From: Trypanosoma brucei
Taxonomy: Eukaryota
DNA: 64,000 bases
Reading direction: 5' to 3'
NCBI GenBank assembly: GCA_000002445.1
Contig: CM000208.1
Coordinates: 2,688,001 to 2,752,000 of the forward strand
Positions 29,547 through 55,392 of this stretch are shown piece by piece (positions within the stretch are counted from its first letter, which is position 1; every line of letters starts with the position of its first letter). The notes under the pieces are model-generated. The model had not been told where the DNA came from. It made no database searches and was given only the letters and a program-made list of their open reading frames with translations. The position numbers were made by a program, and so were the translations under genes.

Positions 29547-30731
29547 ATTAGGACTTCTTGAAATGGAAAGGGCATGCAACGGATTGTTTTGTGCTGTTGG
29601 GCTTGACTACCTGACGATCTCCTTCCGCCTGTGTGAGTCGTTCGGGACCGGAAGGAAGTGCGTGTGCATTAGTGATAGGGGTCGTGCTTCGCCGCTGTTG
29701 TGCTTGTGTAAACTAAGGTGGGAAAGATAATTGTGGAGAAGTAAAATTTTCTGTCATTACCACTGCGTGTGCTGCCTCATCTTCCTCATTACCTTCTCAA
29801 CTCATACGCGCTTATCTACTAACATTTTGTTTGTTTGCAAAACGAAACACCAAGAAACAAGTGCCTGAAGAGGACCAGGGTGCGTCGCCGACTCGAATAT
29901 AACCGGTTACACCGTACTGGGAAGAGTAGAGAAACTGTACGGTTGCGCCACAGCCTCGCAATCCTGTTTACCTCGGTGGCTAAATCCCATCCTAAAGGGG
30001 GGGCGAGGAGGACACAAAGAAGCAGGAAATAGCGCAGGGTTTCGAGAGTAACTTATCACCTTGTCCTCGTTGAGCACAAAGTTTCGTTTTCTTTTACTTC
30101 TCTGTAAGGAGTTAGTCTAAGAAAACTTGCAAGTGGAAGGGGGGAACACAGCTTGTGGCACTTGTCGGGCCTTGTCGGTCTCTCCGTGTTGCTTCTTATC
30201 TTCGCTTGGTTGCTGAAGGACCCTCTAGCTCCACCTCCGGTATATTCGGGGGTGTGTGCGTACTCTATTCACTACTCTTGTTTGTGTGTGCGTCTCCGTT
30301 GCCTGATTTGTAAGCGGCGGCGGGTGCTGGTGACGGATAGAAGCACCAATAAGTCGAGGAAGTGTAAGGGTCCCTAAAGAAGATTGGTGTAAATTGACGG
30401 ATCAGTTGTTAGCGATTAAGGAGCTTGGAGCACGTTGCAGGTGGGGCAGTCAACGTACTCACTGTAGGCTCGTCGGTGGCAGTTTTCTCCACACAAAGCG
30501 TGCATCACTTTGTGCATCTTTTTTCCTTTCCGAGTGGTTGTGTACCCGTGCCTTTATTACCCTTGTCCGTGCTGCCGTTCGGAGTTGTAGAAGAACCGAC
30601 TGTGTGATTGCGCTCGTAGGAATTATAGGTTGCTGAGTAAGACGAGGGGCGCGAACAAGTTGGGTGAGTCAAGGTGTGATATATAAAGAGTGTGTGTGCG
30701 TACAATCCTTTTCCCGTCATCCACAGTTATC

Positions 30732-33431
30732 ATGACATTGTCTGTCGACACCGCGATTGGGGACACCGCCATATGCATGGAGAGGTCATGTGATGCTCCT
30801 ACACCTACTTACGCAGTCAAAACGCGGGCCATGGTGTTGAGCGGCGGTAGTGGCTGTACGCTCTCCAGGTGTCGTCGACTTGGGCGCTCCGCCCGCCAGA
30901 GATCGCCTTCGAATAAACGGTTCTCGGGAAGGATGTCAGCGGCATCCGTGACGCCCTCAGGGGGCCCAGTTATGGACAGGAGCGGCACTGGGTATGTTGA
31001 TGTTTGTCGTGGTGGTGAATGTGCTCCGATGCTTTGCAGGTCAGGGGGATGCGATCACGGTGTTTCCATTTTTGCGGCGGCCGCGACGCCGGCTGCCGCG
31101 GTACCGTTACTCGACGGTACTGTTGCAGCGGAATGCACGAATGGTGCCGGTGGGATGCCAGCTGATGGTAGTCGTTGTGTGACTCAGTTGTACGACGCGG
31201 GCGCAAGCTTGAGGAATGAATCTGGTCGACGGTATCGAAACAACTATTCTTGCCATTACAGCAACAGTGGTGGTAGTGGTTATTGTTGTTGCAGTGCGTC
31301 TTATCGTGGCCAGAAGGGTCACAAGGGCGGTCAAAGCCAGGTGTTTCACAATTCACCGCTTTTCATGGGGAACGGTGGCAATCTGCCTCCCAATCGTGGT
31401 GTAATTTCGAACTATCACTATCACCATCACCCGCCCTGTGGAGCCTCGCACCATCACCACCAAAGGTGTGCTGTGCGTTCCCATCGTCGTCGTGGATTCG
31501 GTGCCGCTGCTGTGGAGGCGATTCGCAGTAGGTTTCAGGCAGGGGCTACCATGTCGCATCACGCACCACCACTTTCCGCTGTGAAATGCAATAGACAAAC
31601 TAAGCAAACTGCTAGTAACGGGGATCAAGAGCCACGGCAGGCATTTCAGGTCCCCCTCCCAAGGTCGAAGGCGGCTGCCGGAGTAACCCAACCCTCCGCG
31701 ACGTCATGTGATGCTGGTGTTGTGAGGCCATCGAAGGGCGATTTCAGAATTGAGATGGATACTCCTTTTTCAGCCACAGACTCAATGAATGACCCTGTAA
31801 ACGGTTCTTCACGGCTCTCTGGCATTGCACCACTTTTCGACCTTGCGATACAGCAGCTCATCCTTGAGTGCGATCGACGGGTTGCCAACGCTTCTGGGAC
31901 GGCGTGCGCCAGTGCGCACAGTCCCTCTAACTCGTGCAATTCTCAAAAGCAGTCTTCAGCGCATTTCTCCGTTAACACTCATTCCTTTGATATGCCAACG
32001 GCATCCCACACGAAGACCACCTTCGCGCAAACACCGAAGGAGTCGTCGTTTGCCACGTTTGCCGTTGAGCAGGCACCTCTGGAGGGAGGCCAATTGGAGT
32101 CTCCGCACCGGGATGCGGAAGCTGAGGTGATGGCTAGGGACGGTGCATGCACGACTAAGCTCCACCGTGTTGAGCCACGGTTGGAGGAGCGGGTGACCGC
32201 CCGTCGGGAAAACCACGTGGGTAACGTTGTTGGTAGGCTGTTTAGGGATCAATCGGAGGATGCCGTGGACCTCGGGAGCGACTGTTCCAAGTTGCAGTTG
32301 CTCATCGTGTCAGTTGGGCTGACTGTGTCATTTGGAGAGTCGGCTCCGTTGGTATTAATCGGCACGCTCATCTATTTGTTCCGTATTGTCAAGCGGTGTG
32401 ATTCTGAGTATTCGAGCGTAACCGCAGCGAATTGGTACCGACTCACAGCTGTCGCCCTGCTGGTTGCTACAAAAATGTACGTTGATGGTTCAGGTAGCTG
32501 GAATGAGTGTTTTTCGAATGCCACTGATATACCTTTAAAAGAATTGAACAAGCTGGAGATCGACTTCCTTTTCTTGCTTGACTTTGACGCGCTGATCACG
32601 GAGGAAGAGGTCGAAGCTCGTGCTGATTGGATGGACTCTGTTGCCAGCCGACACGATATGATGACACCCCTGCGGACATTTGTATTGGGGAGCAGCTGTG
32701 CCCCTTCATGCGTGGCGACTCCCTTGTCTCCTGCTGCTGACGAGGCGTTTCGGTCGGTTCCACTTGGTTCTTCCAGCAACATGCCGTCAACCCCATTGTC
32801 CCTTACACCATCCAATATGACACCGGTGAATTGTTTCTCAACTCCATTTACCCAGTCAAGACCAATCCGCAACCAGTGTGTCGGTTCTTTGGTTTCTGGT
32901 GTTGATGCGAGTGACAAGCAGCAGCAGCAAACGCGGCCTTCAAGCATGCGTCGTTTGTCCTCATCACTGTGCCCCTGCGATCGCATGAGCCCCTTGCCAC
33001 TGTCTGTGTCGAGTCTGTCTCTAACGGAGAGACTCTTTTCGGTTGTTCATGCACCTGCCGAACCAGAAACACCCCCAAGTCTCCGTCGTTTTGCTCGCCA
33101 AGATGATGAACCTGTATCTCCGTTGACACCACCCGACCAGGAGAGGATGTCCCCAGTATTTTTCTTCTGTAACGCGACTCGGGGGAGACGTTGTAATGCG
33201 ATGACGGCAGTTGGGGAGAAAACAAATAAGACATCGCCGGCAGGCAGTGCAGTGCAGTACCGCGTCTCTGCAGGTGTTGCCGGTGACGCCTGGAACGGTG
33301 ATGAAATGGATGAGGAGGGGGGAACGCCTCCGCACCCGCGGCGTTGTATTCTCTCACCACCCACACAGGAAGCAGCGCCACTGCCTCCGCTGGGTATGAC
33401 AGACTTCCACCACCGTCTTCCCAGGAAATAA
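30732..33431 (+). CDS. PHO80-like cyclin domain protein with very long low-complexity N-terminal region
   Basis: Track start 30690 is GTG; first ATG at 30732. C-terminal region contains a cyclin box of PHO80 type (LIGTLIYLFRIV...LVATKMYVDGSGSWNECFSNATDIPLKELNKLEIDFLFLLDFDALI). The N-terminal ~550 aa are low complexity, including a His-rich run HYHHHPPCGASHHHHQ. Confidence 0.72.
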   Translation: MTLSVDTAIGDTAICMERSCDAPTPTYAVKTRAMVLSGGSGCTLSRCRRLGRSARQRSPSNKRFSGRMSAASVTPSGGPVMDRSGTGYVDVCRGGECAPMLCRSGGCDHGVSIFAAAATPAAAVPLLDGTVAAECTNGAGGMPADGSRCVTQLYDAGASLRNESGRRYRNNYSCHYSNSGGSGYCCCSASYRGQKGHKGGQSQVFHNSPLFMGNGGNLPPNRGVISNYHYHHHPPCGASHHHHQRCAVRSHRRRGFGAAAVEAIRSRFQAGATMSHHAPPLSAVKCNRQTKQTASNGDQEPRQAFQVPLPRSKAAAGVTQPSATSCDAGVVRPSKGDFRIEMDTPFSATDSMNDPVNGSSRLSGIAPLFDLAIQQLILECDRRVANASGTACASAHSPSNSCNSQKQSSAHFSVNTHSFDMPTASHTKTTFAQTPKESSFATFAVEQAPLEGGQLESPHRDAEAEVMARDGACTTKLHRVEPRLEERVTARRENHVGNVVGRLFRDQSEDAVDLGSDCSKLQLLIVSVGLTVSFGESAPLVLIGTLIYLFRIVKRCDSEYSSVTAANWYRLTAVALLVATKMYVDGSGSWNECFSNATDIPLKELNKLEIDFLFLLDFDALITEEEVEARADWMDSVASRHDMMTPLRTFVLGSSCAPSCVATPLSPAADEAFRSVPLGSSSNMPSTPLSLTPSNMTPVNCFSTPFTQSRPIRNQCVGSLVSGVDASDKQQQQTRPSSMRRLSSSLCPCDRMSPLPLSVSSLSLTERLFSVVHAPAEPETPPSLRRFARQDDEPVSPLTPPDQERMSPVFFFCNATRGRRCNAMTAVGEKTNKTSPAGSAVQYRVSAGVAGDAWNGDEMDEEGGTPPHPRRCILSPPTQEAAPLPPLGMTDFHHRLPRK

Positions 33432-34757: not shown

Positions 34758-36515
34758 GTATAGCGAACCTATAAGGGAAGAGGAGTGATGTTGAGAAGGA
34801 AGGAGAAATAAAACGATGGAGGAGGGAAAAAGGCAACAAAGGAGGGAAATAAAGCCCTTTCGTTCAACAGTGAAAGTGATTTTTTTTTTTCCTTTTTTCC
34901 CACCTTTTTTTGAAAAAAAAACTTTGTTTTCTGTCCTCTTCCTTTCTTCCCCACATAGGAATTGGTTTAGTGAAGAGTGAGCGGGAGTGTGGAATGTAAG
35001 ATGAAGTGGGTGTAATATTTTTTTTTGTTTTGTGAGGTGTTAGGGAGAAGGGGGAAACACTTTGTGTGGTGAGATTATTGTGTTGTTAGTGAGTGGATAC
35101 CGACGAAAAGGCAAGGGAAGGAAAAAGGAGAGGGGGGAAAAAACAACAACAACAACAAAGAAAAGCAAAAGGGTGTTCCGAAACAACAACAACAACAATT
35201 GCATAAATGGAAGGCTTGTGTATATGTTTACCGTGAAGCAACGCGTTGGGTTTACCCGCCTTCCCGTATATTTATTCGTCACCATTAAAGAAAGGGAGAA
35301 GAAATATGAAAAAAAGAAATCCAAAGGGGATGAGGGATGACGTAACTGTTCTATGAATGCCCAACGTGAACACGTGCTCATGCACACACTTATATGTAGC
35401 AACAATTACAAACGAATACAAAAAAAAATAAGTATAAGTAAATAAACAACCACACACATATATATATATATATACGTTTTCCTGTAAGTTTAAAATACTT
35501 GTTTTAGGATTCATGGTAAGGAGAGAAAAGTTATATAATGATAACATGAATATACATATATGAATATGTACGCTTGTGGAGGAGGTGTGTGTGTGTGTGT
35601 GTGTGTGGGGAACCCTGGCAGCGGGAAAGTACATTAACTTTCCGGTGTAGTGGGGGTTATAAGTTTTTTTCTTTCTGTTTTCCCCTTTCACCCCCTTGTT
35701 GTTGTTCCCTTTTTTTTTTTGTTTAAGCTTGTGAATCAGTGGTGCCCTTCTCCATTGCCATCAGTATTGTAGGCGAAACGGTATTCCTATACTTTTGTTT
35801 TTCTTTCCTTTCTTGCAGTCCTTTCCCCTGTCTTCACTCACAACTGTTGTGTGATACATTTGATTACTTTTTTTTTCTTTCTTTTTAAATTTTGGCTGCA
35901 CTTCTTTCGCTCCATGTACAGGTTTACAGAAGGCAGTTTTCTTGGGAAAGAGTGTGTTACTTAATTTCTATGGTAAGTGAGTGAACAATGGATGATTATG
36001 ACGTCTCTAAGGTCGCGCACAGTCATTGCTGGCACACCGTAGCATTCCTTGAGGCATATCTTTTCTCTTGTCTAAAATTCCCCCCATTGCTGCGGCATTT
36101 ACTTGCTGGATTTCACCCTCATTCTTGCTTGTTACTCTTCTTCCTCTTTGTCTTCTCACTGTTTGTGTTTCCATGTGCCCTTTTTTAAAAAAATTATTTG
36201 TTGTATGTACCTTTTCAGGTATTGTGAGTGAATAACACATTAAACAAGCCAGAAATTAAGGGACGTGAACCTAATAGGGACACTCAAGGGAATTGGGGCG
36301 GGATAGTGTGGAGTGGTGAGACCCACTGAAGTGACGGCAATCCCTGAAGAAGAAAAAAAAAAGAGAAATAATTAAAGGTAACAAGGGCCACATAAACGCA
36401 TACGGAGACGTGCTGCGACTTTGCCGGTGTGCCTTCTTAGATTTAGCGTATCCTGGAGTGTGCATTTGACTCCTATCGGACTTGCTTTCTTTTGGTCAGA
36501 GACAAAGAAGAAAAC

Positions 36516-38705
36516 ATGAATATTTTTTCCTTTGGGAGGGAAAGCATGTGCTCTTTCTCAGCCACAGAGGGAAAGGAGAGTGTGCCTCTAACCGCACGGT
36601 CGTATGAGCGATCCCGGTCTGAGCTCTTCGAGGGCCTTACCACCACCCGTGCCGTTGCTCTGCAGGCGACGACCTCAAGTAACTTCCCTTCGAGCAGCAA
36701 TGCGAAGCAGGTACCTGACGGTGAGGGTTTGTTTTCCATGGGCAGTTGTTCCGTATCCACGGACAAAGTGGAGGAAAACTCAACCATCTGTGAGACCTCC
36801 AGGTCTGCTGGGGGGAAGCAACGGAAACAGAAGGGTCAACAGAAACCCCGTAAGGCAAAAACGAATAACTCTAGGGACGATAACAAGAAGAAAAATGCGA
36901 CGAATACAAAGACGCCGCAGCGGACGTCACGGAAGAAAAGCGGGAAGCGCAAGAAGAGAAGGTCTAGTTGTCGAAGTATGGGTGAGGCAAGCGTGCGGAG
37001 CAACGGGACACCTGCAGAGGGAGAGATTGAGAGTAGTAATGCTGAATCAAGTGTTCAGTTACCACGGCCCTTTAATACCCCAAAGGGTGTACCGGCTGTG
37101 GTGCATGTTGTGGCACACAATATCGCAGAGATGCAGGGAAGGAAAAGAGAAAGTTGCGTCCAATCGCTCTCGCGCCCGTTTGAAATGTTCGATCGAATAG
37201 TTTCCAGACCCGAGTGTGGCAAGGATGCCCAGGAAACGCCTTCAACAGCGGCTTCCCACAGCGATCTTCACACCTCTATATCTGTGTTGAAGGGGCAAAG
37301 CTCCACGACCATCGATTTACCTGAGAGGAGTAATTCTGTGGTTGGCGTGTTTGCGACTGCAACAACTCCGGCACTTCCTTCTTCGCCGCCGCTGTATGGA
37401 AGGAGCAGCAGGCGTGAACATACAGCGCGTGCCGGGGATGGTACGGCATACTTGTCGTCGTTGACATTTTCATCATTACTGGGCTCCTTCCAAAAAGAGC
37501 AAGAGAAAACAGAAAGGCCCCCAGCTAAGAGCCCCTCCACCCTTGAGGGTCTTACTCGACACTCTCTCACAGATATGGTTGAGGGTAAAGTCCCGAGTAA
37601 AACTGAACCTGTTGTAGAACGACTTCTCGCACGCACTCTGAGCTCAACTTCTGAGAAAGAGCGTACGGCGACAATTGTGTTCGACCTTGACGAAACCCTT
37701 TGCAACAACCGCGTGAACGGTCCCGCCATACTTAGACCCGGTGCGATTGATATACTGGGAAAACTGCGGTCGCTATATCCCCGCTGCATCGCACCTGGGG
37801 ATGGGGGCTCGCCAGTTCGTGATGCAAGCGCCTCCGCGGAAAGTGTAGGAAACTCCGGTAGCAGAAGCGGACTAGTTCCGACGGATGTGACGGCTGGTAA
37901 TGGTCCTTTGCTGCAGCTGGAGATTGTTCTGTGGACCGCAAGTGTGGAATCGGTTGCACGTCCCGTAGTCGATCGACTTGACCCTGATGGCACCATCTTT
38001 GATTGTGTTATATGCCGCGACGCGCGTTGGTACGACGAATCTGGATACACGAAGGACCTGCGCCTTCTTGGTCGTTATATTGAGCGTAGCGTAATAGTGG
38101 AGAATTCTCCCCTCTGCGTGAAGTTGAATCGGCGTAACGCTATTCTTGTGAGCGACTTCGTGAGGAATCGAATGGACCGACAACTGTACGTAGTGTGCGT
38201 TATACTTTTGGAGTGGCTCGATAACGTGAACAATCTATTGCTGCGAAAACATATGATGCGTGTCAATATGGAGCGTCGGAGGGGCTGTGGGATGTCCGAT
38301 GGCGGAGAAAGTCCCGAACCGGAAATGCCGCCGAGCGAGGCCCAACTAAGGGGTTCAAAGACACCTGGCCTCACAAAGCCGCATAAAGCGGATATGCTGG
38401 GCTCGACTCTTCCTTTGCACGAACTTGAGCGAAGGGCTTCTGCGATTTATTTTGTGGGGAGCCATCCTTTTATTTCACCCTCAACGCGTCTTGTTAGGTC
38501 GTCTGCTTGCCAACAGGCGGTAAGGTATCTTTGTGGAGAGGGATTTGCCTCTGGGAAGATGAAAATCATCTCGAGGAGGCGCCCGGCAGCAAAACATGCG
38601 GCAGTTACGCCAAACACACCAAAAGGAAGATCTTCTTCGCTTACTTCCATTTCACCTGCACCGGTCCCTGGAAGAGCGCCTTCGCGGGAAGTGTCGTGTT
38701 CCTGA
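36516..38705 (+). CDS. FCP1-homology / NIF-type (CTD small phosphatase-like) phosphatase
   Basis: Track start 36492 is TTG; first ATG at 36516. DxDxT catalytic motif FDLDETL, LRPGAIDIL, EIVLWTAS, YTKDLRLLGR, IVENSP match the SCP/NIF signature. Basic NLS-like N-terminus (KQRKQKGQQKPRKAK..KKSGKRKKRR). Confidence 0.75.
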   Translation: MNIFSFGRESMCSFSATEGKESVPLTARSYERSRSELFEGLTTTRAVALQATTSSNFPSSSNAKQVPDGEGLFSMGSCSVSTDKVEENSTICETSRSAGGKQRKQKGQQKPRKAKTNNSRDDNKKKNATNTKTPQRTSRKKSGKRKKRRSSCRSMGEASVRSNGTPAEGEIESSNAESSVQLPRPFNTPKGVPAVVHVVAHNIAEMQGRKRESCVQSLSRPFEMFDRIVSRPECGKDAQETPSTAASHSDLHTSISVLKGQSSTTIDLPERSNSVVGVFATATTPALPSSPPLYGRSSRREHTARAGDGTAYLSSLTFSSLLGSFQKEQEKTERPPAKSPSTLEGLTRHSLTDMVEGKVPSKTEPVVERLLARTLSSTSEKERTATIVFDLDETLCNNRVNGPAILRPGAIDILGKLRSLYPRCIAPGDGGSPVRDASASAESVGNSGSRSGLVPTDVTAGNGPLLQLEIVLWTASVESVARPVVDRLDPDGTIFDCVICRDARWYDESGYTKDLRLLGRYIERSVIVENSPLCVKLNRRNAILVSDFVRNRMDRQLYVVCVILLEWLDNVNNLLLRKHMMRVNMERRRGCGMSDGGESPEPEMPPSEAQLRGSKTPGLTKPHKADMLGSTLPLHELERRASAIYFVGSHPFISPSTRLVRSSACQQAVRYLCGEGFASGKMKIISRRRPAAKHAAVTPNTPKGRSSSLTSISPAPVPGRAPSREVSCS

Positions 38706-39062: not shown

Positions 39063-41347
39063 TTGCTGTGCTTGTGAGGTGGTAAGGGTATACCTGCATG
39101 TGCATTTGCATGGTTAACATGAGGGCTGCCGTTGCACTGCAGAAATCGTTAAGTGTGTAGCCGCCGTTTGGGGCCGGCTTCTTCCCCCTTTGTTTCACTT
39201 CTTTTATCTCTATCTTTCACTTTTTATTTTCCTTCTTCTATTTCGTTTTTTTCCGTTACCCACCCGTTGGGAGAGTTTTGATCACTTATTTTGGAGCGTG
39301 GGTTGCAGTGGTTTGCACGGTGGTGAAATATTTTTCCTTATTATTTCGCTTTTCATGCTCCACTTAAAAGGTATGTATATCTATATTTATGTGTGTGGTG
39401 AGGTATATGGAATAGAATAAAAGGCCAAACTAAAATGCATGAGGGGGAGGGAAGTTGTGAGGCACGAAGAGGGGAAGTGGAAGGGATGGAGGAAAGAAAG
39501 AAAAAGTTCAAAAATAACCCCACCCTCAAAAAAAAAAAAGAGAGGAAGACTAGCGCGAGGGAGATGAAAAATGGAATAATCTGCATTGAGGAATTGTAAA
39601 GAAAAAGGCGAACACACATGCACAAACATACAATAATGGGTGAACCAGCGATGCATATGGTTCGAAATAAAGTAAGGGAGTTGGAAAAAATTTGAAACGG
39701 TGCCCGTATCTCATTTTCCACTTTTTTACATCTTCTGCCGCCTTTGGTTTAGCCCTTCTTTCTTTCCTTTGGTTGAATTCACATGTTCCTTTTCTCTTAA
39801 GTCCGTCTGGAGTTTTCATTGAGGATGGGATGGAGGGTCGCCGTTTAGTATGCATATATATATATATATATATGCGTTTGTGTATTGGGAAAATCAAAAA
39901 TTCCGTCAATGAGTTGGTGTTTTTTTTTTACTTTTTAATACCTTTTTAAAACCCTTTTAAAACAGCAATGTTAGTTGTTGCTTTTTTTTTTCCCCCTTGT
40001 TCTCTTCTATCCAGTAGGGGACTTTCCCTTTCCTTCAGAGATTGTGCCGCAAAAAAAAACCCAAAGGTCTGTTTTGACAGTTGAGCTCGCTTCCATGCAA
40101 TGCAAAAACTATGTTCATAACTATCTCTATATCTCTTTCTTTCTTTTTCCGCCAGCCACTTCCGTCGTATCGCGTCACCCCCCTTTTTGTTGTTTTCCCC
40201 AATTTTCCTTCTTTTCCTTTTTACGCTTCCGTGTGTGCTTTCGTAGAGGATGGTGTGGGGGTTTATTGCCTCCTTTTTTTTATATTTTTATTTTGCAGAG
40301 GTGGGATGACGACAAGGGGCGGGGGGGAGCGGTGAGGGACGAGGAGACATTTTGGATGAGTAATGGGATAATATCACCGCGAGAGCTCGACGAGGGTTCG
40401 ATTTATTGCGTTTGTAGCGCAGGGGGGCACATGTGTGCGTTTAGAGAAAAATATCATATCTGATTCTAGGTGCGTAGGTGCGCGCGCGTGTGTGTGTGTT
40501 TGTGTGTGTGGGGAGGGAAGCCGCTTTAGTTTCACGGCTCCTCAAGCCGCTGTGCCTGGGAATGCATTCTCAGGTTATGGCACAGTATGAGGGCCGTATA
40601 GGGTGCCACTTTTTTGTTTTTTTTTTTCGTGATGGAACTGTCTCTGTCCATTCTTTTTGTCTTATCCCTTTAACATTTCACTTTTTTTTTTTCTTTACTC
40701 CATCTTCACTTTGTCTTGCGGATATTCAGGTACATTTGTGACGCCGCATGTGAAATACTGGGGGAGGGGGAATTCTAGCTGGGTTTGCCCTAACTCTAAC
40801 CTCACTTTTTTTTTTTTTTTAAATCCTTCCTCTCTCCTCGGTGGATGCCATCGGTGGCTGCGTTGGCGCCACCCCCCTCCATCGATTTCTCTTTTGTGTC
40901 TTCGTTCTTTCACTTAATTTCACTTTTTTTTATTTTTGTTTCTTCCATATCCCCCGCCTCCCCCAAATCATGCCTGCCCTTGACTCTTTGCATATTACAA
41001 CGCTGGTACCACCTGCAGTCGTCCGTCAACTTTCTTCCGTTTGAATTGGGTGTGAGAGGAAGAAGCAGCCGTATGAGGGTACCGGGTCTACCGCGACTGT
41101 TATCGACAAACAAACCTCCGCACATACGGTAGCACCAAACCAATACAAGTTCACGGTAAAACTTGAGTATCAAAGACCAGTTCCCCCCTTTGCTGCCCCA
41201 TAAGCTTAATTACCCTAGTTGTGCGTCTTTCTATATGAAAAATAAACGCATGTTTACATATATATACGTTTGTGTGAATGTCACTTTTTTTCCTTCTCCC
41301 CCACCATACTCTTTCGCTCTCGCTGGAAGTACAGGATAGCTGTGTAT

Positions 41348-44300
41348 ATGTTATGCCGACGTTTCCTCGAATCACTGAGTGCGCCGCCGGCAGGGCTCAC
41401 ACTGCCGTTGGCATCATCACGTTTCAGTTATCGAGTGAGTCCTGTGTTAAATTCAAATGCAGTTGGTGGTGACACAGGGGGTGTGGATGACCGGCTGCAC
41501 GTCACGCCCTTCTTTGCTTCACTGTTTCCTAATCACTTTGCGGTAATAGGGTCGTGCGCAGAAAACAACAACTCCGCACTTTCATTAAAGTGCCCGCTCA
41601 CCGCAAGGAGGGTTGCAGCGGCACCGCGCGTCACCGAACGTGTGGGGGATAGAAAAAGCAGTGTAAAGGCACAGCCGCTTCATCCTTGGCACGCTATTGC
41701 AAATATTAAACATGCTGTTCTCTATGGTTCAAATGGGGAGGACGGAGACAACAACCCCGAGCCTGATGCAAGTGGAACATCTCAAGCAAAATGCTGCTCG
41801 TTTACTATGCTCGAGGGGAGCCGTGACGCTGGAACGTCTACCGACGCGCAGCTTCACACGCGAGGGACCACGGATTCGGATTGCGCAGATAAGGAAGACG
41901 AGGAGCTTTTGCTCACTGCTATGAGGGCACGCCTGGCACGCTATTCCGTCCGAAATGATCCTACCACCAGTTCCAACGCCGCTTCCATTTGCAGTAACAA
42001 TTGCACCGATGAAGATACGGAGAAAGCCGCTCGCGACAGTGTGCCACATAAGAAACCCCTTACTCTGGAGCGGGTGATGCACGCTTCCGCCTACGCATTT
42101 CACCACACGTTTGAGGCCCTTGTACGCGACAAGCAAGATTGGCTGGCGGTTAAGTTGTTGCGCCGCTGGTGGCATCACAATCCACATCTCTTTCCACTCG
42201 AACTGCAGTTGCAGCAGCGAAAGGAGGTTGCGGATGTTTTGCGTAGGGTACGGCTGGGGGGAGAAATAATTGATGATCGAGACCGACAGACTATTGCAGA
42301 GTGCTTGTCTCAAGTGCCTGCCAAGAAGTACCTGGTTTCGTCTGCGTTATTCGGTCGTGTGTTGATGGTTGCACTCAGAATGGGCGACGCGGTGATGGAA
42401 GAGGAGTTCGTACTGCGTGAATTGCTTTATGACGCCGTATACGGCATAGTTTGCGGAGGCTGCTTAGCAGGTGCTGAGGACACCTCTGAGGTTGCGGACA
42501 CCAAGTCTTGCGACATCGGCAATAAACATGGTGTCGGGCCCAGTGATGATGCTTTGGTGGTTGGTGTGGAGTCTCGATCCTCCGAAGGGGGTCCGAAGTT
42601 TCATCTTTACAAGGAGAAATACGAAGACTGGCTGGTGTTCGTTGGGGCTATTGCAGCAGCCGCGATGCTAGAACGACATGCGGAGAAGCTTCAACGTGAA
42701 CATAACCGCGGGTTAACATACGAGCGTCTTGTCCGCGCCGTACGCGAAGAGTATGCCAACTTCATGAACAGAGCGTGCCACCCACAACAAGGGCAACAAT
42801 CGTGGTCGAGCGTTCCGTTTTCGGCGGACGTGAAGGAAAGCCTGCCGGTTTTGCCAGGCTGGGCCAAGATGCTATTCACAACGGTCTTCCGTTGTTACGA
42901 GGAGTCTGGAGTGTTTCATATTTCACCTGCCCGCCGTCCAGGCAACTGTGCTCTGCTGTGGAGGAATATTCATGCAAAACTTCTGGAGAAGTTTCCACAC
43001 GTTTTTCATGCGGGAAGCACAGTCGCAACGTTGCTTTCATTGGAGGCACTTGAGGAAGCAGCCGTGTCAGCCATGGGTACGCGCCGTCTTTCCTTTGTTG
43101 GGAAAGAGGAGGCACTGTGCCGGTGGCGACTGGAATGTCTATCCTGTAAAATCCCATTTGAGCTGTACGGGGGTGTACTCAATGGTGGTGAAAATACCGA
43201 TGTGGACAATCAGCAAAACGTGGGGGACCCATACAATTGGCCATTTAGTGACTTGCCGCGTACGTACAAGCAGCGTCGAGCTCGTTTCGTTGCATCCTAC
43301 AGCACCTTCTCCCACAACGGCGACCGAGAGAACCTCGCCGCGAGTTCTTCCCTCGCGGACAGCGGCCGACACCAACTTCACTGGAAACACCGTGAGTTTT
43401 TTGGCTCTGGGGTTTGTCTTTCCTCCTCTCGACCAAACATTCCTGTTTTCACTTCCCCAGAGGAAGTATACCGCTGCGAGAGGGATGCTCTGGACGAGGT
43501 TGCTGATGCGTGGCGTTGCACGGTTGAGATATTTCGTGATTACTCATCACTGCCCTTACTTCAACTAGACCCTGCGTCCTCAGCCTTTTCGGCGAATGAC
43601 AGCTTACGGGGGTGCGATGGCGATACAGCTTTGGAGGTTTCTAAGCCGTCCATGTTTGTTTTTCTGCGCCTTATGTCCCTGTTGGCCTCGACGGGCAACC
43701 CGCCAAATATCACTGCTGAGAAAGGATCGGCTGGTGATCTGCACTTTCCTCTGGTGGAGTGTATCGAGAGGGACATTATCCCTTTGTGTCATCCGAGTGT
43801 TGCAGCACACTTGCGCCGCTGTTGTGTTACCCATTTATCACGAAGTGGCACGCGGGGAGTGCGGCTGCTTTTGGCTCAGCACCAATTGCTCTTGTCGCAG
43901 AAGTTGAATGAGGATGCTGCCTTGGAGCGACTCCTGACCGGGTTGTTGTGGTCGGGGGGCAATGGAAGTCACGAGGGCGTGTGTCCTCGTGGCTGCTTCT
44001 CCTTTGGAAGCGGGTCGTTAGCATGGCAGTTTATTGCCCAGCAGCGTCGCACTTTCTCCTCTTCATCTGGTTGGTTTATGCTTGATTTGATTCTTTCGCA
44101 CTTGGTGACGCTCTCTCTCTCGATACCTGATGACCACAGGTGTGCGGTGTTCGTTTCATCCAACATGATTGCCGTCGCAAGTGACAACGCGCGTGAAGAC
44201 ACCGCTGTGCATTCTTCACTTCGGGGTGAGTTGAGTTGTAACCCGCCACCTGCACAGCATCTGTATGTTTCGCTACTACAGTTGCTGGCGTGGGTCGTTG

Positions 44301-45433
44301 AACAGGAGGAGGTAGGTAAGATTGACAAGTGTCGGGGAACCGGAACTACATCGGCTACTGATGCAACCGCTGGAGTGGATGTAGAATTGAGCTGTGAATG
44401 CACGGATGGTGAGCTCCCATCGCTGCATGAGACTGCCCATCACTGGCGGACTGTTCGGCGGTTCCTTTGCAAGGTTTCAGGTTCCCCATTTTCTCGCGTT
44501 CCTTTTGCGCCATCGGTGTTGGAACGAATAGCCCTAATCCTCGTTCACACCTGTCCTGACCTCGAACTGCTTTTAGGGTCATTACTTACCCTTTTGTTAC
44601 AACATCAGAGGCAGCAGCTTAATAAGAAACTTTTTGCCTTTTGCACGAAATCAACAGATGGACCAATGAATGCGGGGCAGGACGATACCACGTCTCCTAT
44701 TACCCCGCGGTTGTTGTCGAGTCTTTGTGGATTGTTGGTGATAAATGGAGTGAAGGGGCGTGGTGTGTTGGAGTGGCGTACCCGTAGGGGTGCTCCCAGT
44801 TGTGGCAGTGAGGAGGAAAAAGTCTCACTCTGTGAGTGGCACTGCTCCTGCTTTGAAAGTGTCATGCAGGATAGCCATTCGTCTTGTGAGGGCCAAGATA
44901 CTCGTGGGAGTGGTCGTGGCGCTGCGAGTGTTGCAGGTGGCGAGGACGCGATGGAAGTAACGAAAATCGGGCAAACTGGAGTTGAAGCGAAGTACCTTGT
45001 GGGCAGCGTCGTGCTTGGTATAATCGTAGGGGACAGTAAATGGAAGTCATTTTCTGCTGACAACTACAACGTGGCGCTTTTTCTCGACTCAATCCAAAAT
45101 GACGATAGGGGTGTGTGCGCCAGGGGTTCCAGTGCTACTGACGGAAAGGGCGTTTTCCCCCTAGGAGTTGTGCTTCCGTCGGTGCAGATGACTTCTCTAT
45201 ACCCCGCGGGTGTGCGTCAACGTGTCACAAGCATCAAAGATGTTTTTCGGGAGATGCAGCCCGATCAGCGCTCACGAGTGCGGCAATCTCTATCGCAGAG
45301 GGAGCGTACGGAGGTGGGGGGAATGCTTGCTGATTTTATCTTACCCGGGGCTGACGCAGAGGAGTGTGATGGAGACATTGTGCGTCAATTCACACAACAT
45401 GGGGCTGTGAACGGGGTATGCCACCGTGAGTAG
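41348..45433 (+). CDS. large hypothetical protein (1361 aa), possible mitochondrial presequence (MLCRRF..)
   Basis: Track start 41270 is TTG; first ATG at 41348. Long uninterrupted ORF; no family recognised. Confidence 0.55.
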   Translation: MLCRRFLESLSAPPAGLTLPLASSRFSYRVSPVLNSNAVGGDTGGVDDRLHVTPFFASLFPNHFAVIGSCAENNNSALSLKCPLTARRVAAAPRVTERVGDRKSSVKAQPLHPWHAIANIKHAVLYGSNGEDGDNNPEPDASGTSQAKCCSFTMLEGSRDAGTSTDAQLHTRGTTDSDCADKEDEELLLTAMRARLARYSVRNDPTTSSNAASICSNNCTDEDTEKAARDSVPHKKPLTLERVMHASAYAFHHTFEALVRDKQDWLAVKLLRRWWHHNPHLFPLELQLQQRKEVADVLRRVRLGGEIIDDRDRQTIAECLSQVPAKKYLVSSALFGRVLMVALRMGDAVMEEEFVLRELLYDAVYGIVCGGCLAGAEDTSEVADTKSCDIGNKHGVGPSDDALVVGVESRSSEGGPKFHLYKEKYEDWLVFVGAIAAAAMLERHAEKLQREHNRGLTYERLVRAVREEYANFMNRACHPQQGQQSWSSVPFSADVKESLPVLPGWAKMLFTTVFRCYEESGVFHISPARRPGNCALLWRNIHAKLLEKFPHVFHAGSTVATLLSLEALEEAAVSAMGTRRLSFVGKEEALCRWRLECLSCKIPFELYGGVLNGGENTDVDNQQNVGDPYNWPFSDLPRTYKQRRARFVASYSTFSHNGDRENLAASSSLADSGRHQLHWKHREFFGSGVCLSSSRPNIPVFTSPEEVYRCERDALDEVADAWRCTVEIFRDYSSLPLLQLDPASSAFSANDSLRGCDGDTALEVSKPSMFVFLRLMSLLASTGNPPNITAEKGSAGDLHFPLVECIERDIIPLCHPSVAAHLRRCCVTHLSRSGTRGVRLLLAQHQLLLSQKLNEDAALERLLTGLLWSGGNGSHEGVCPRGCFSFGSGSLAWQFIAQQRRTFSSSSGWFMLDLILSHLVTLSLSIPDDHRCAVFVSSNMIAVASDNAREDTAVHSSLRGELSCNPPPAQHLYVSLLQLLAWVVEQEEVGKIDKCRGTGTTSATDATAGVDVELSCECTDGELPSLHETAHHWRTVRRFLCKVSGSPFSRVPFAPSVLERIALILVHTCPDLELLLGSLLTLLLQHQRQQLNKKLFAFCTKSTDGPMNAGQDDTTSPITPRLLSSLCGLLVINGVKGRGVLEWRTRRGAPSCGSEEEKVSLCEWHCSCFESVMQDSHSSCEGQDTRGSGRGAASVAGGEDAMEVTKIGQTGVEAKYLVGSVVLGIIVGDSKWKSFSADNYNVALFLDSIQNDDRGVCARGSSATDGKGVFPLGVVLPSVQMTSLYPAGVRQRVTSIKDVFREMQPDQRSRVRQSLSQRERTEVGGMLADFILPGADAEECDGDIVRQFTQHGAVNGVCHRE

Positions 45434-45778
45434 TGTATCTGGGATCGAGGTAGGACGCTTGATGTCCCCATTATTTCAACCTGTCCACCAAAAGTTGTTG
45501 GGCTCTTCGGGCTACTCACCATTTGGCGATGCAAAATGCATATTTCTACCTGTTGTTCACATGTGCACCGTCTGAGGAGCTCGTTCCCATTTTGTGGAGG
45601 GGGCGGCTATTGTTGTGCATGGTTAGTTTTGAGGCATCCCACTGCTTCGTTGATGCCGTCATTAGCACTCTCTTGGCTTGACTGCTCTTTTTCCTTTTGT
45701 GCAATTTGGTTTTTGTCGTGAATGGATCGAGTTTAAGTGGTGATTAGAGCGTGCAGGTGCTGTTTGTGCAATTAACAC

Positions 45779-47692
45779 ATGAGATGCGCACGTTTCTATC
45801 TTATACAGTGGGGGCACACGGTTGCCGCTGGCACCGCCGCACCTCCCCGTCGTAAGCGGCAATTCAACATGAAGGAGGGAGTCAGGGAGCCCCGTCCTCC
45901 CAGAAGCACTGAAGTGAGTGCATCACCAGCTACCGTATCCACACCGTATCGGTCGCCTAGAGGCCTCACGCGCCCCCTTTCTCAACGAGAGGAGTATCGT
46001 GCCTTCCAACAACAGCAGCAAGAGGCCTTGTGCAATCGTGGGATTCCAGGGGAGTGGATGACGCCATTGCCATCACGTGTTGGTATTGACGAGCATGGTT
46101 ATGAGGCTCCCCGAGTTACAAAAGAGGAGCGCCGAACAATGTTACAGCAGGCATTAGAACGCAACGCAGCATCGGTTGTGGAATTCACGGATGGTGGAGA
46201 AAGTGACATTGAAACCCACGGAATGAGTTCTAGCGACTTTCATTCGCGGGATGGATGGACGACGATACCAAAGGAATCGGCACTGTATAGCAACATTTGT
46301 GCGCGTGACGAGCTTCAGTCACGCGCGCGTCACAACTCTTGGTCTCTCTCCCACCTGCGAGGACATGAAAGGGAAACGGGGAACCTGGCAACACCAGGTT
46401 CGTCGGCTGAATCTATGGACAAGGACTGTGTTTCCGTCGCCTCTGAAGACGTTATTGATGCTTCACGAAGACGGCGACATCAGGACGAAGGTTCCTATAC
46501 AAATGTGTTGGGGGGCGATTTGTTAGAACCGAACTTTGAGAGCATTGGGCAGCCGCGCTCAACTTATGGGATGCGCAAGTTGTTTGTTGCTGGGCTTACA
46601 GGTTACGAAGGAATGATCACCAAGGGGGAGGAGGCACTCATATGTGGAGAGTTAATGCTCTTGTTACAGGATCGGCGCGCTGCGTATATCGCAGAAGAAA
46701 CACGTTACTGCGTCAATTTGTACGAAAAAGAGCTTGGAATCCCGGGGAAGGACACACTTGCCTTCGCAATGGACCGTGCCCCCACTCTACAGGCAGTGCT
46801 GGAACGGTTCTTTCATCTCGGTATTATTCCAAGTTTGCCCAACATATGCCAAGTCAACGAGATGATCGGTAACTTCTCGGGGTATCCCGTCCACAAGAAA
46901 CCGCACACAGTAGGACCATACGTTGGTATAATGAATCTCGTTTCGACCACTGTGATGCACATGCAGCACGTAGACAGCCCCTGGTTCCCCCGCATACATA
47001 TGAGCCCACGGTCCCTTTTCATCGTGGAACAACCGTGTTTAGGGGAGTACAAAATGGGTTACAAACAAACACACCAGCCCTTTCACGCCTTTGAATATGC
47101 TACGCGTGTATCTAAAGATTATCGCATCGAGGTGATGTTTGCTACGGTTGAGGTCTCACACATGCGGTGCCTTCGTGAGGCCGTCGGCCTCACCGACTAT
47201 GCACGGGTCAAACAGCTTGATGGAGGGGGTTCTGACGGTGTTCCAAGGCGTCAGGAGCCTCAGTTGACCGAAACGGCTTCGTCAAAATCGTGCGTAACAC
47301 GGAGTGGGGAGGAAAATGATATGTCCTTGTTTGTCGGTTCAGCTGATAGGTGGATTGAACGTCTGCAACGTCAGCTTCATGCGGCTGAAGTCGATAATCG
47401 TGGGTCTTCTGGGAGAGAGACGGCAAGCGTTCAAGGCCCCTGCCATGATGGCAATTTGCTCAGGGAACAACTACTTGCTACGGGGAGCATTGGTTCAAAG
47501 TCACGACCATTTGAAACTTCTAACGCAGCGGCGGAAAATGGTGGAGGAGCGAACCAGTCGAGGCGCCGGATAATGGCTCTGAAGGCACGCTACGAGCTTG
47601 CAAAGAAGTTAAGAGAGGAGCGTGGACCGGAGGTGTCTAGTGGTATGCGCGTCATCAAGGGCCACTCACCGTTGGAAAAGCCAAGGCTGTAG
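45779..47692 (+). CDS. hypothetical protein with ALKBH7-like 2OG-Fe(II) oxygenase-fold region (tentative)
   Basis: ATG ORF of 637 aa (alternative ATG at 45869). The segment KPHTVGPYVGIMNLVSTTVMHMQHVDS...SLFIVEQ...FHAFEY...YRIEVMFATV resembles my recollection of ALKBH7 (KPHVDS..GATIAGLSLLSPSVMRLVH..SLYILRG..SHEIL..RRISVICRSL). Confidence 0.45.
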   Translation: MRCARFYLIQWGHTVAAGTAAPPRRKRQFNMKEGVREPRPPRSTEVSASPATVSTPYRSPRGLTRPLSQREEYRAFQQQQQEALCNRGIPGEWMTPLPSRVGIDEHGYEAPRVTKEERRTMLQQALERNAASVVEFTDGGESDIETHGMSSSDFHSRDGWTTIPKESALYSNICARDELQSRARHNSWSLSHLRGHERETGNLATPGSSAESMDKDCVSVASEDVIDASRRRRHQDEGSYTNVLGGDLLEPNFESIGQPRSTYGMRKLFVAGLTGYEGMITKGEEALICGELMLLLQDRRAAYIAEETRYCVNLYEKELGIPGKDTLAFAMDRAPTLQAVLERFFHLGIIPSLPNICQVNEMIGNFSGYPVHKKPHTVGPYVGIMNLVSTTVMHMQHVDSPWFPRIHMSPRSLFIVEQPCLGEYKMGYKQTHQPFHAFEYATRVSKDYRIEVMFATVEVSHMRCLREAVGLTDYARVKQLDGGGSDGVPRRQEPQLTETASSKSCVTRSGEENDMSLFVGSADRWIERLQRQLHAAEVDNRGSSGRETASVQGPCHDGNLLREQLLATGSIGSKSRPFETSNAAAENGGGANQSRRRIMALKARYELAKKLREERGPEVSSGMRVIKGHSPLEKPRL

Positions 47693-48104: not shown

Positions 48105-48135
<31 letters not shown>

Positions 48136-48156
48136 GTGTGTGTGTGTGCGTGTGTG
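48105..48156. repeat. (TA)n followed by (TG)n microsatellite
   Basis: Directly visible. Confidence 0.95.
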
Positions 48157-48440
48157 CTCCACTGCACTCTAAGTAGCAGGACCATCACTTTGAGTTCTCT
48201 CTCTTCCTTTTAAATTCCTGGAACGGTACGGCCTCGTGAGGGGAAGGGGAGAGTCATTTATGTTTCTGCCTTCATATCTATATATTTTTTTTTGCTTCAT
48301 CCACTTTCCCCCGAATAACAACATAAGGTGTAGGCGTGAGGCCTACTTGTGTCTAGTGGCCGTGTGTAGGTGGCAGCGTTGCAACAACGCTGTGAGAACG
48401 CCTGCTGTGGCTTTTCTGCGGAGGGGTGGAGAGAAGCTTC

Positions 48441-49454
48441 ATGTGGCGCCGGGGGATTTTACTTCTCGCACCACCTCGCGTGCTCTGTCTTACAATGGCG
48501 CCAGGTGGGACTATGGCGACGGCGCTCACGCAACTCGGTTACAAGCCGTACACATTTCGTCACACATTTACAGAGGGACGCGTCGGCACGCATCCGCAGG
48601 AGTGGTGCGCGGTTCTTGACAAGGAGAAGGCTTTTGACTCCACTATTTTAGGGAACTCGCAGTGTGGGGCCGCAACAGCGGGTAATGGAGTTAGTTTTGA
48701 TGCACTGGTAGGGCTACCCAGTACATTGGCATTTGAATCCATACTAAGGGAGTGCCCTTTAAGCACACGTGTTATTCTCGTAGAAGAGACTGACAAGGAT
48801 GCCTGGATGAGAGAGGCGGAAACAACGTGGGAACTGCTTTTGCAGCAGACGGAGCGGGCGGCGCGGCGACGTGCGGGCGCGTACCTTCACAAAATGGTCC
48901 AGAAAATGACCACGGGCATAGTGAGTGGGGGATGTGGAAAAAGAAAACAAATATCACCAGTTGCTTTTATTGATATGCTTGAGGAGCGCATCAAAAAAAC
49001 TGTTCCACGGGATCGGTTGCTCGTATATCGCTACGGTGATGGCTGGGAGCCGTTATGCCGCTTCCTCTCCAAGCCTCTTCCAACTGGAGACGGTACCGAA
49101 CCTCTGCCTTTCCCAGCGCGTGACGACGGTACATCTGACGTGGCCTATTTGGCCGATCGACTGCAGCGTGTTGATCGAGTTGTCTGGTGGGCAACATGTT
49201 GCCTTGTCGCTGCCGCTATTGTAATTTACACACCCTTCTGCGCTCAACTGCGTGACATTGTGGCGGAATATTACGTGGACTATCGTTCCTCCTTTGAACC
49301 CCTTTTGGAAGAGAGCGCTGCTTCTGGTGGCAAACTCACACTCCGCCGGGCTCTCGTTTTGGCGAAAAATACAACAATGGCTTTTGAAGAGAAGTTAAAT
49401 GAGCGTGGGGGTGTTGTTGGGGCGGCGGGTGAGGCGCTGAGTAAACTTACATAA
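48441..49454 (+). CDS. hypothetical protein with C-terminal hydrophobic (tail-anchor-like) segment
   Basis: Track start 48426 is GTG; in-frame ATGs at 48441, 48495 and 48513. C-terminal VVWWATCCLVAAAIVIYTPF is hydrophobic. Confidence 0.45.
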   Translation: MWRRGILLLAPPRVLCLTMAPGGTMATALTQLGYKPYTFRHTFTEGRVGTHPQEWCAVLDKEKAFDSTILGNSQCGAATAGNGVSFDALVGLPSTLAFESILRECPLSTRVILVEETDKDAWMREAETTWELLLQQTERAARRRAGAYLHKMVQKMTTGIVSGGCGKRKQISPVAFIDMLEERIKKTVPRDRLLVYRYGDGWEPLCRFLSKPLPTGDGTEPLPFPARDDGTSDVAYLADRLQRVDRVVWWATCCLVAAAIVIYTPFCAQLRDIVAEYYVDYRSSFEPLLEESAASGGKLTLRRALVLAKNTTMAFEEKLNERGGVVGAAGEALSKLT

Positions 49455-54747: not shown

Positions 54748-55392
54748 ATGGGGCCTCTATCTAAGAAGCGCATGATGGTGCGCGATGGGGTCTTCTACGC
54801 CGAGCTTTTCGAGTTCTTAAAGCGCGAGTTGGCTGACGACGGTTTCGCTGGCGTTGAACATCGTGTTACTCCCACTCGCACGGAGATTGTCATCCGTTCC
54901 ACAAAGACCCGCGAAGTCCTCGGTGAGAAGGGCCGCCGCATCCGTGAGCTAACGGCTTGCCTTCAGCAGCGGTTTAACTACAAGGAAGGCAAACTGCAGC
55001 TGTTCGCCGAGCGCGTGGAGGTGCGTGGACTGTCCGCAATGGCGCAGGCCGAATCCCTGCGTTTCAAGCTTCTCAGCAACCTTCAAGTGCGCCGTGCGGC
55101 CATGGGCATCATCCGTTACGTGATGGAATCCGGCGCAAAGGGCTGTGAGGTGACAATTGGCGGAAAGATCAAGGGCCAGCGCGCGAAGAGTATGACATTC
55201 CGTGACGGCTACATGATTAAGTCGGGTACTGCTCACAAACACTTCGTTGACACGGCCACCCGTCATTGCCACTTGCGTGCAGGCACCATTGGCGTAAATG
55301 TTAAAATCATGCGCCCACAGAGTATGATAGAGGAAGACGAGGTACTTCCCGATGTGATCACCGTGATTGAACCCAAGACTATTGAGGCTTGA
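54748..55392 (+). CDS. RPS3: 40S ribosomal protein S3 (uS3)
   Basis: KH-domain and S3 C-terminal signatures ([55 protein letters not shown]), 214 aa. Poly-Y tract plus AG upstream. Confidence 0.9.

Follow-up and report, generated by a model that had tools for sequence, protein, structure and literature searches.

Human ALKBH7 is a mitochondrial protein that is reported to act on regions of mitochondrial pre-tRNA (PMC11065319). A 2015 survey by Iyer, Zhang and Aravind places the AlkBH1-, 4-, 6-, 7- and 8-type clades before the divergence of the euglenozoans (PMC4738411), so the occurrence of a protein of the ALKBH7 type in this lineage is not unexpected. Here we describe such a relative in Trypanosoma brucei, encoded within a 64,000-nucleotide stretch of DNA (contig CM000208.1 of assembly GCA_000002445.1, positions 2,688,001 to 2,752,000, forward strand), which is called the window below. 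An earlier sequence-only reading had proposed for the open reading frame (ORF) at 45779-47692 an ALKBH7-like 2-oxoglutarate (2OG)-Fe(II) oxygenase fold in which the His-x-Asp (HxD) dyad was either relocated or inactive. Our analysis indicates that the central part of the encoded protein is almost certainly AlkB derived and that the protein, like its kinetoplastid orthologues, is probably a pseudoenzyme.

Homology of the central domain to AlkB dioxygenases

The ORF encodes a protein of about 71 kDa, in which the peptides quoted by the sequence-only reading are present exactly. Two extensions flank a central domain.

45779..47692, plus strand: complete ORF, 637 residues plus stop, from the ORF listing
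45779..46567, plus strand: N-terminal extension, residues 1-263, without Pfam match; predicted local distance difference test (pLDDT) score mostly 36-67
46568..47158, plus strand: AlkB-type double-stranded beta-helix domain, residues ~264-460
47159..47689, plus strand: C-terminal extension, residues 461-637, basic (isoelectric point 9.55), without Pfam match

The single sequence returned 0 Pfam families at E<=10, including PF13532 (2OG-FeII_Oxy_2), the very search that had been suggested as a check, and phmmer found no match for it among all PDB chains. A full-length family profile matched six PDB entries, all belonging to the AlkB family (NMAD-1 and ALKBH7), at nonsignificant E values of 0.27 to 1.2, and was taken as a lead, not as evidence. 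Sequence homology to AlkB proteins became significant after removal of the flanks. With core-only alignments, hhalign paired the kinetoplastid family with ALKBH7 over 173 columns at a probability of 96.9% (E 1.7e-10), and the family plus a distant protist group (see below) at 98.2% (E 4.4e-14). A core HMMER profile built from 25 core sequences, none of them from ALKBH7, matched NMAD-1 (3.1e-10), ALKBH7 (4.4e-10), ALKBH8 (1.5e-9), Ofd2 (7e-7), and ALKBH6 (1.2e-5) in the PDB, and its first match beyond these five AlkB subfamilies appeared at an E value of 0.7.

Structure prediction led to the same family. The first AlphaFold2 model, computed for the full-length protein from an alignment of 36 kinetoplastid sequences (A1), reached pLDDT values of 80 to 95 for residues ~250-480 and low values elsewhere, including the loop at 432-445. 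The best Foldseek match of this model in the PDB was human ALKBH7 (4qkd_A; E 2.8e-10; target template modeling [TM] score, 0.68). When the domain alone was modeled from a deeper alignment (pLDDT 83; predicted TM score, 0.80), the query TM score was ~0.6 and the target TM score reached 0.71 for ALKBH7, with ALKBH6, ALKBH8, and NMAD-1 slightly ahead in E value; the order of AlkB subfamilies thus depended on the model. The top 50 matches were AlkB proteins for both models. The predicted domain combines the double-stranded beta-helix core with the N-terminal alpha/beta extension typical of AlkB proteins. The central ~195 residues are therefore almost certainly homologous to AlkB-family Fe(II)/2OG dioxygenases and share their fold, and both the oxygenase domain and its unrelated flanks are as the sequence-only reading had described them. 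Neither of the two outcomes named beforehand as refuting that reading, lack of a significant profile match and a fold other than the double-stranded beta-helix, came about. The closest clades are ALKBH7 and ALKBH4. The label "ALKBH7-like" is slightly too specific: NMAD-1, an ALKBH4-type protein, ties with ALKBH7 by sequence, and the Foldseek ranking of the subfamilies varies with the model.

Replacement of the active-site residues

In human ALKBH7, H121, D123, and H177 are the metal ligands, and R197 and R203 are 2OG ligands. The ALKBH7 sequence used here agrees with PDB 4QKD apart from one mismatch, which fixes this numbering. Column counts below refer to either 47 family cores (core register) or the 36 orthologues of A1. 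The segments of the domain that correspond to the active site are as follows.

46892..46900, plus strand: degenerate HxD, H372-K373-K374, at the position of ALKBH7 H121-V-D123
46967..46993, plus strand: H397-V-D399 and conserved hairpin H-x-x-x-P-W-x-P-R (397-405), at the end of strand IV
47054..47059, plus strand: M426-G427, at the position of the distal metal-binding His (ALKBH7 H177; NMAD-1 "KHG")
47072..47113, plus strand: strand VII-VIII loop with THQPFH, residues 432-445; pLDDT below 50 in both models
47123..47143, plus strand: strand VIII, R449-I-E-V-M-F-A455; R449 corresponds to ALKBH7 R197 and A455 to the R203 position

Over the 47 cores, the column of H121 (H372) contains H39 Q6 S1 K1, that of D123 (K374) contains K35 H9 R2 S1 and is never acidic, and that of H177 (M426) contains M23 V10 I9 F3 L2 and is always hydrophobic. 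R197 is retained as R449 in 47/47 sequences, and R203 is replaced by Ala (A455) in 47/47. The family thus lacks a His-x-Asp/Glu...His facial triad, and of the 2OG-binding R-x5-R pair on strand VIII only the first Arg remains. Other 2OG contacts have changed as well: the equivalent of ALKBH7 Y165 is variable (F22 Y9 T7 V3...), and that of H108 is Ser or Asn. D447, Y448, R449, and E451 on strand VIII are invariant.

The H372/K374/M426 register was common to four analyses: (a) the HMMER match to NMAD-1, ungapped over both motifs, with ALKBH7 also matched; (b) an alignment of the distant relative P0074 with NMAD-1, in which HTE paired with HQD; (c) a MAFFT L-INS-i alignment of 75 cores from three groups; and (d) core-only hhalign. 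The 14 residues from S412 to M426 equal the spacing from S163 to H177 in ALKBH7. M426 is preceded at -2 by an aromatic residue (Y424) and followed at +1 by an invariant Gly, like the "W-K-H-G" of NMAD-1, and the "LQGSARYDYLM" of the bridging sequence P0063 aligns with the "LRGSARYDFSH" of ALKBH7. Both models contain a beta-bridge at residue 372.

This register changes the residue assignments of the sequence-only reading. The homologous HxD position had been placed at H-T-V (H376), four residues away from H372-K-K374, in a column that is variable (P9 R6 A4 H3...). The "true" H-V-D said to follow 24 residues later is H397-V-D399, which lies 21 residues after H376 and 25 after H372. It aligns with ALKBH7 H147-T-Q, which is no ligand position and whose first residue varies among ALKBH7 orthologues (S8 H5 K3 D2 N1). 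H397 itself is invariant in 47/47 family members and present in 8/9 distant relatives; D399 occurs in 20/36 orthologues, the others having S, E, N, A, or T. A shifted or duplicated HxD motif therefore rested on a misalignment. Similarly, THQPFH (432-436) had been taken as the counterpart of the ALKBH7 SHEIL motif, whereas the distal-His column is that of M426 and THQPFH falls in the poorly modeled VII-VIII loop. In the 36 orthologues, the H432 column contains H28 Q4 E2 S1 D1 and the H436 column H34 Y1 E1.

Conservation in kinetoplastids and distant relatives

Alignment A1 shows a highly conserved core at residues ~250-480, with variable flanks that contain a few short conserved motifs, and 39 columns are invariant across its 36 sequences. 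Conservation is strongest in the 397-405 hairpin (H397-x-x-x-P-W-x-P-R), in which P401, W402, and P404 are invariant in A1, and in residues 300-330 (AAYIAEETRYCVNLYEKELGIPGKDTLAFA).

46676..46768, plus strand: most strongly conserved family segment, residues 300-330, RAAYIAEETRYCVNLYEKELGIPGKDTLAFA

In the latter segment, E307, R309, Y310, C311, Y315, L319, and L327 are invariant in A1, and hhalign pairs it roughly with ALKBH7 Y61-W81. The conserved motifs of the extensions are AASVVEFTDGGE, GWTTIPxxSALY, LxSRxRxNSW, and RRRR..DEGxY on the N-terminal side and GSTDxWLxxLR, DGxALREQLL, and QRRxxALKAR on the C-terminal side, where they are carried by helices that the AlphaFold2 model predicts (463-482, 522-541, 558-568, and 593-614).

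When 1.84 billion representatives were searched exhaustively with a profile, just 43 proteins came up, which makes this a narrow family, and there was no bridge to annotated families apart from a distant group of protist proteins (P0074-P0077). Outside the kinetoplastid family, no sequences are closer than these and P0198-P0203, which hhalign connects to the family at a probability of 99.6% (E 1.9e-23; core-only alignments). The distant proteins are 330 to 450 residues long, have basic N termini, and lack both kinetoplastid extensions. They are encoded by genes without introns, which in locus L001 share a single strand of a large contig. Pfam returned nothing at E<=1 for eight relatives, the distant group likewise has no Pfam hit, and P0075 searched alone against the PDB gave only noise. 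In most members of the distant group, HxK replaces HxD and the distal position is a non-His residue followed by Gly. P0076, however, has an intact H-K-D...W-S-H...DYRISV, which argues that the loss in the kinetoplastid family is derived; to judge from these sequences, the ancestor was probably catalytically active.

A putative pseudoenzyme and the alternatives

Residue conservation indicates that the canonical Fe(II) site has very probably been lost across the whole family. Two of three iron ligands and one of two 2OG arginines are replaced in every member while 39 other columns are invariant, which points to a pseudoenzyme under purifying selection. Catalytic residues are consistently replaced across orthologues, and the rest of the domain is conserved. 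Since the canonical site is very probably gone family-wide, the inactive pseudo-oxygenase, one of the two options left by the sequence-only reading, is favored over a relocated dyad: the Asp, the distal His, and the second 2OG Arg are replaced in every family member. We thus propose, with a probability of roughly 0.7, that the protein is an AlkB scaffold that no longer performs oxidative demethylation and is kept as a binding module, probably in the mitochondrion.

In the mechanism that we envisage, the iron triad would have been dismantled by exchange of its Asp for Lys, His, or Arg (K374) and of its distal His for a hydrophobic residue (M426), the first His (H372) usually being kept; of the 2OG arginines only R449 is left, the second being an invariant Ala (A455). 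The scaffold may have been retained for binding, whether of RNA, another protein, or a small carboxylate. Its most conserved parts, residues 300-330 and the 397-405 hairpin, are the candidate contact surfaces. By standard double-stranded beta-helix topology, the hairpin would lie at the active-site end of the barrel, and this location together with its top conservation leads us to propose the former substrate face as the binding surface; residues 300-330 may likewise contact a ligand or partner. Assembly or localization could be the task of the two lineage-specific extensions. The presequence-like N terminus (see below) makes the mitochondrion the probable site of action, as for ALKBH7, although for the proposed mitochondrial binding role itself we see about even odds. 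Kinetoplastid mitochondrial genomes encode no tRNAs. Given that the ALKBH7 substrates are mitochondrial pre-tRNA, this would be one rationale for the lost catalysis, which is speculation.

Two observations weigh against an inactive site. First, H372 (39/47), the invariant H397 and R449, and H436 (34/36) could still support ligand or metal binding. Second, our first hhalign run, on full-length alignments, paired H376 with H121 and H432 with H177 at a probability of 80.8%. This register was rejected because both columns are variable, because it requires gaps of 5 and 6 residues, whereas the S412-plus-14 spacing and the neighboring residues (aromatic at -2, Gly at +1) need none, and because core-only hhalign, MAFFT, and HMMER all give H372/K374/M426.

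Of the alternatives, a noncatalytic sensor or binder of 2OG or another carboxylate, held through R449 in an iron-free pocket, survives best, and we consider it unlikely. Such a protein would couple the mitochondrial metabolic state to the complex that it joins. The invariance of R449, D447, Y448, and E451 in a barrel modeled with high confidence would suit this role, but the other 2OG contacts are gone (variable Y165 equivalent, R203 to Ala, H108 to Ser/Asn), and the invariant E451 could fill the pocket through an internal salt bridge with K374.

Less probable still is that the protein has remained an active Fe(II)/2OG dioxygenase whose metal site has moved or is noncanonical, built for instance from H372 plus either H397/D399 or H432/H436. 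This possibility draws on the invariance of H397, which extends to 8/9 distant relatives, on the end of strand IV, which by standard topology should share its end of the minor sheet with the distal-His position, on the presence of H436 in 34/36 orthologues, and on the invariant R449, the equivalent of the 2OG C5-carboxylate ligand in AlkB proteins. However, D399 is found in only 20/36 orthologues, 8/47 family members have Q, S, or K instead of H372, and H432 and H436, which sit in the loop with pLDDT below 50, are both missing from the more divergent members P0061, P0063, and P0065. In addition, Ala invariably replaces the second 2OG-binding Arg, the ALKBH7 position matched by H397 is variable and no ligand, and no three-ligand set is conserved family-wide. 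That H397 and H372, with D399 or the loop histidines, form a relocated center, i.e., an AlkB-derived oxygenase with a previously unseen ligand arrangement, is accordingly a slim prospect. Finally, a chance or generic jelly-roll resemblance of a protein unrelated to AlkB enzymes, for which the empty single-sequence Pfam and PDB searches and the full-length profile E values of only 0.27 to 1.2 might speak, is effectively refuted by core-only hhalign, the core HMMER profile, and the PDB dioxygenase evidence and is hardly credible.

N terminus and start codon

The gene model of the reference strain TREU927 (607 residues) begins at M31, at window position 45869, and the first ATG, at 45779, adds 30 residues.

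45779..45868, plus strand: presequence-like first 30 residues, MRCARFYLIQWGHTVAAGTAAPPRRKRQFN

These residues include 6 basic and 0 acidic ones, and the motif MRxxRxxxLQWG..AG..PPRRKRQF is kept over them in eight Trypanosoma species. Most full-length orthologues likewise have 5 to 7 basic and 0 to 1 acidic residues among their first 30. Just upstream of 45779, a polypyrimidine tract (~45668-45703) is followed by several AG dinucleotides (~45729-45757). To judge from these features, the TREU927 reference annotation probably cuts the N terminus short. The N terminus resembles a mitochondrial presequence: its basic character, its conservation in Trypanosoma, and the similar N termini of orthologues suggest mitochondrial import, as for ALKBH7.

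Orthologues, neighboring genes, and other features of the window

The ORF product shares 99% identity with T. equiperdum TEOVI_000192100 and 46 to 66% with other trypanosomatid orthologues (Trypanosoma, Leishmania, Porcisia, Leptomonas, Novymonas, Phytomonas, and Angomonas). All sources label these hypothetical or uncharacterized. The T. b. brucei TREU927 entry XP_823355.1/Q389J3 ("hypothetical protein, conserved") is identical to residues 31-637. The gene identifier Tb927.10.11600 (66.0 kDa) was not accepted for it, as the calculated mass of the 607-residue form is 67.8 kDa. After residue 582 (window ~47524), in the variable C-terminal region, eight residues (AAEEEGRG) are inserted in the orthologues from T. 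b. gambiense and T. equiperdum, which differ otherwise by only two substitutions, G12R and Q81H.

The window contains long ORFs on one strand with pyrimidine-rich spacers between them. Upstream on the same strand lie genes for a 913-residue PHO80-type cyclin-domain protein (30690-33431) and a 737-residue NIF/FCP-like phosphatase (36492-38705), followed by a 1387-residue ORF without Pfam domain (41270-45433). The downstream gene (48426-49454) encodes a Sulfotransfer_4 domain (Pfam E 1.6e-29). Genomic context is uninformative here: these neighbors and an S3-like gene farther downstream (see below) are functionally unrelated and form one polycistron, as expected for trypanosomatids.

In the 1321-residue predicted protein P0049, from a divergent relative (36% identity; E 2e-58), the AlkB-like protein is followed directly by a sulfotransferase-domain part. 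This arrangement implies conserved gene order, with P0049 being either a true fusion or the result of read-through in gene calling. At ~48105-48150, the intergenic spacer that follows the gene holds a (TA)n microsatellite (~14 units), which passes directly into a (TG)n run. Farther along, the ORF at 54748-55392 encodes 214 residues with KH_2 and Ribosomal_S3_C domains. The RPS3 gene that T. brucei papers cite, Tb927.9.6070, lies on another chromosome (PMC3493610, PMC6393297), and this ORF may therefore be a second S3 copy or a variant.

Significance and comparison with known systems

No publication on this trypanosome protein was found in the literature, nor, within the searches possible, any report of a catalytically dead AlkB homologue. 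What is new is the AlkB link of this "hypothetical" family, the probable family-wide loss of the canonical site, and the corrected residue mapping. A fold and a family can now be assigned to a kinetoplastid-wide "hypothetical" protein without Pfam domain, in which an AlkB-type demethylase scaffold appears to have been kept under strong selection after loss of the iron site. If mitochondrial, the protein would be a candidate for a noncatalytic adaptor or subunit in the RNA or protein metabolism of kinetoplastid mitochondria, a system with many lineage-specific components that attracts interest as a drug target. In practice, the analysis yields a corrected active-site alignment and a probable correction of the TREU927 start codon; overall, this is a modest annotation advance and no conceptual surprise.

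Compared with human ALKBH7 (PDB 4QKD/4QKB/4QKF), the T. brucei protein shows 15 to 20% identity, has ~264 more N-terminal and ~180 more C-terminal residues, and carries H372/K374/M426 and A455 in place of H121/D123/H177 and R203. Nearly all ALKBH7 orthologues listed contain PF13532, unlike the T. brucei protein. Caenorhabditis elegans NMAD-1, of the ALKBH4 clade (PDB 8HAZ, 8HB2), differs in its intact HxD...H and is not mitochondrial. The 2015 survey gives the ALKBH4 clade an N-terminal Zn-binding domain (PMC4738411), and none was seen in the T. brucei protein. Other comparisons come from the trypanosome mitochondrion itself. The RESC complex contains a subunit with a dioxygenase (PhyH-like) fold (PDB 8FNC chain 14), and catalytically dead subunits of the KREPB4/5 type provide a further precedent (PMC6800513, PMC5648035). 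Like the PhyH-like subunit of RESC and the RNase III-like KREPB4/5, the AlkB-type protein described here would be an enzyme fold kept as a structural or binding subunit in kinetoplastid mitochondria.

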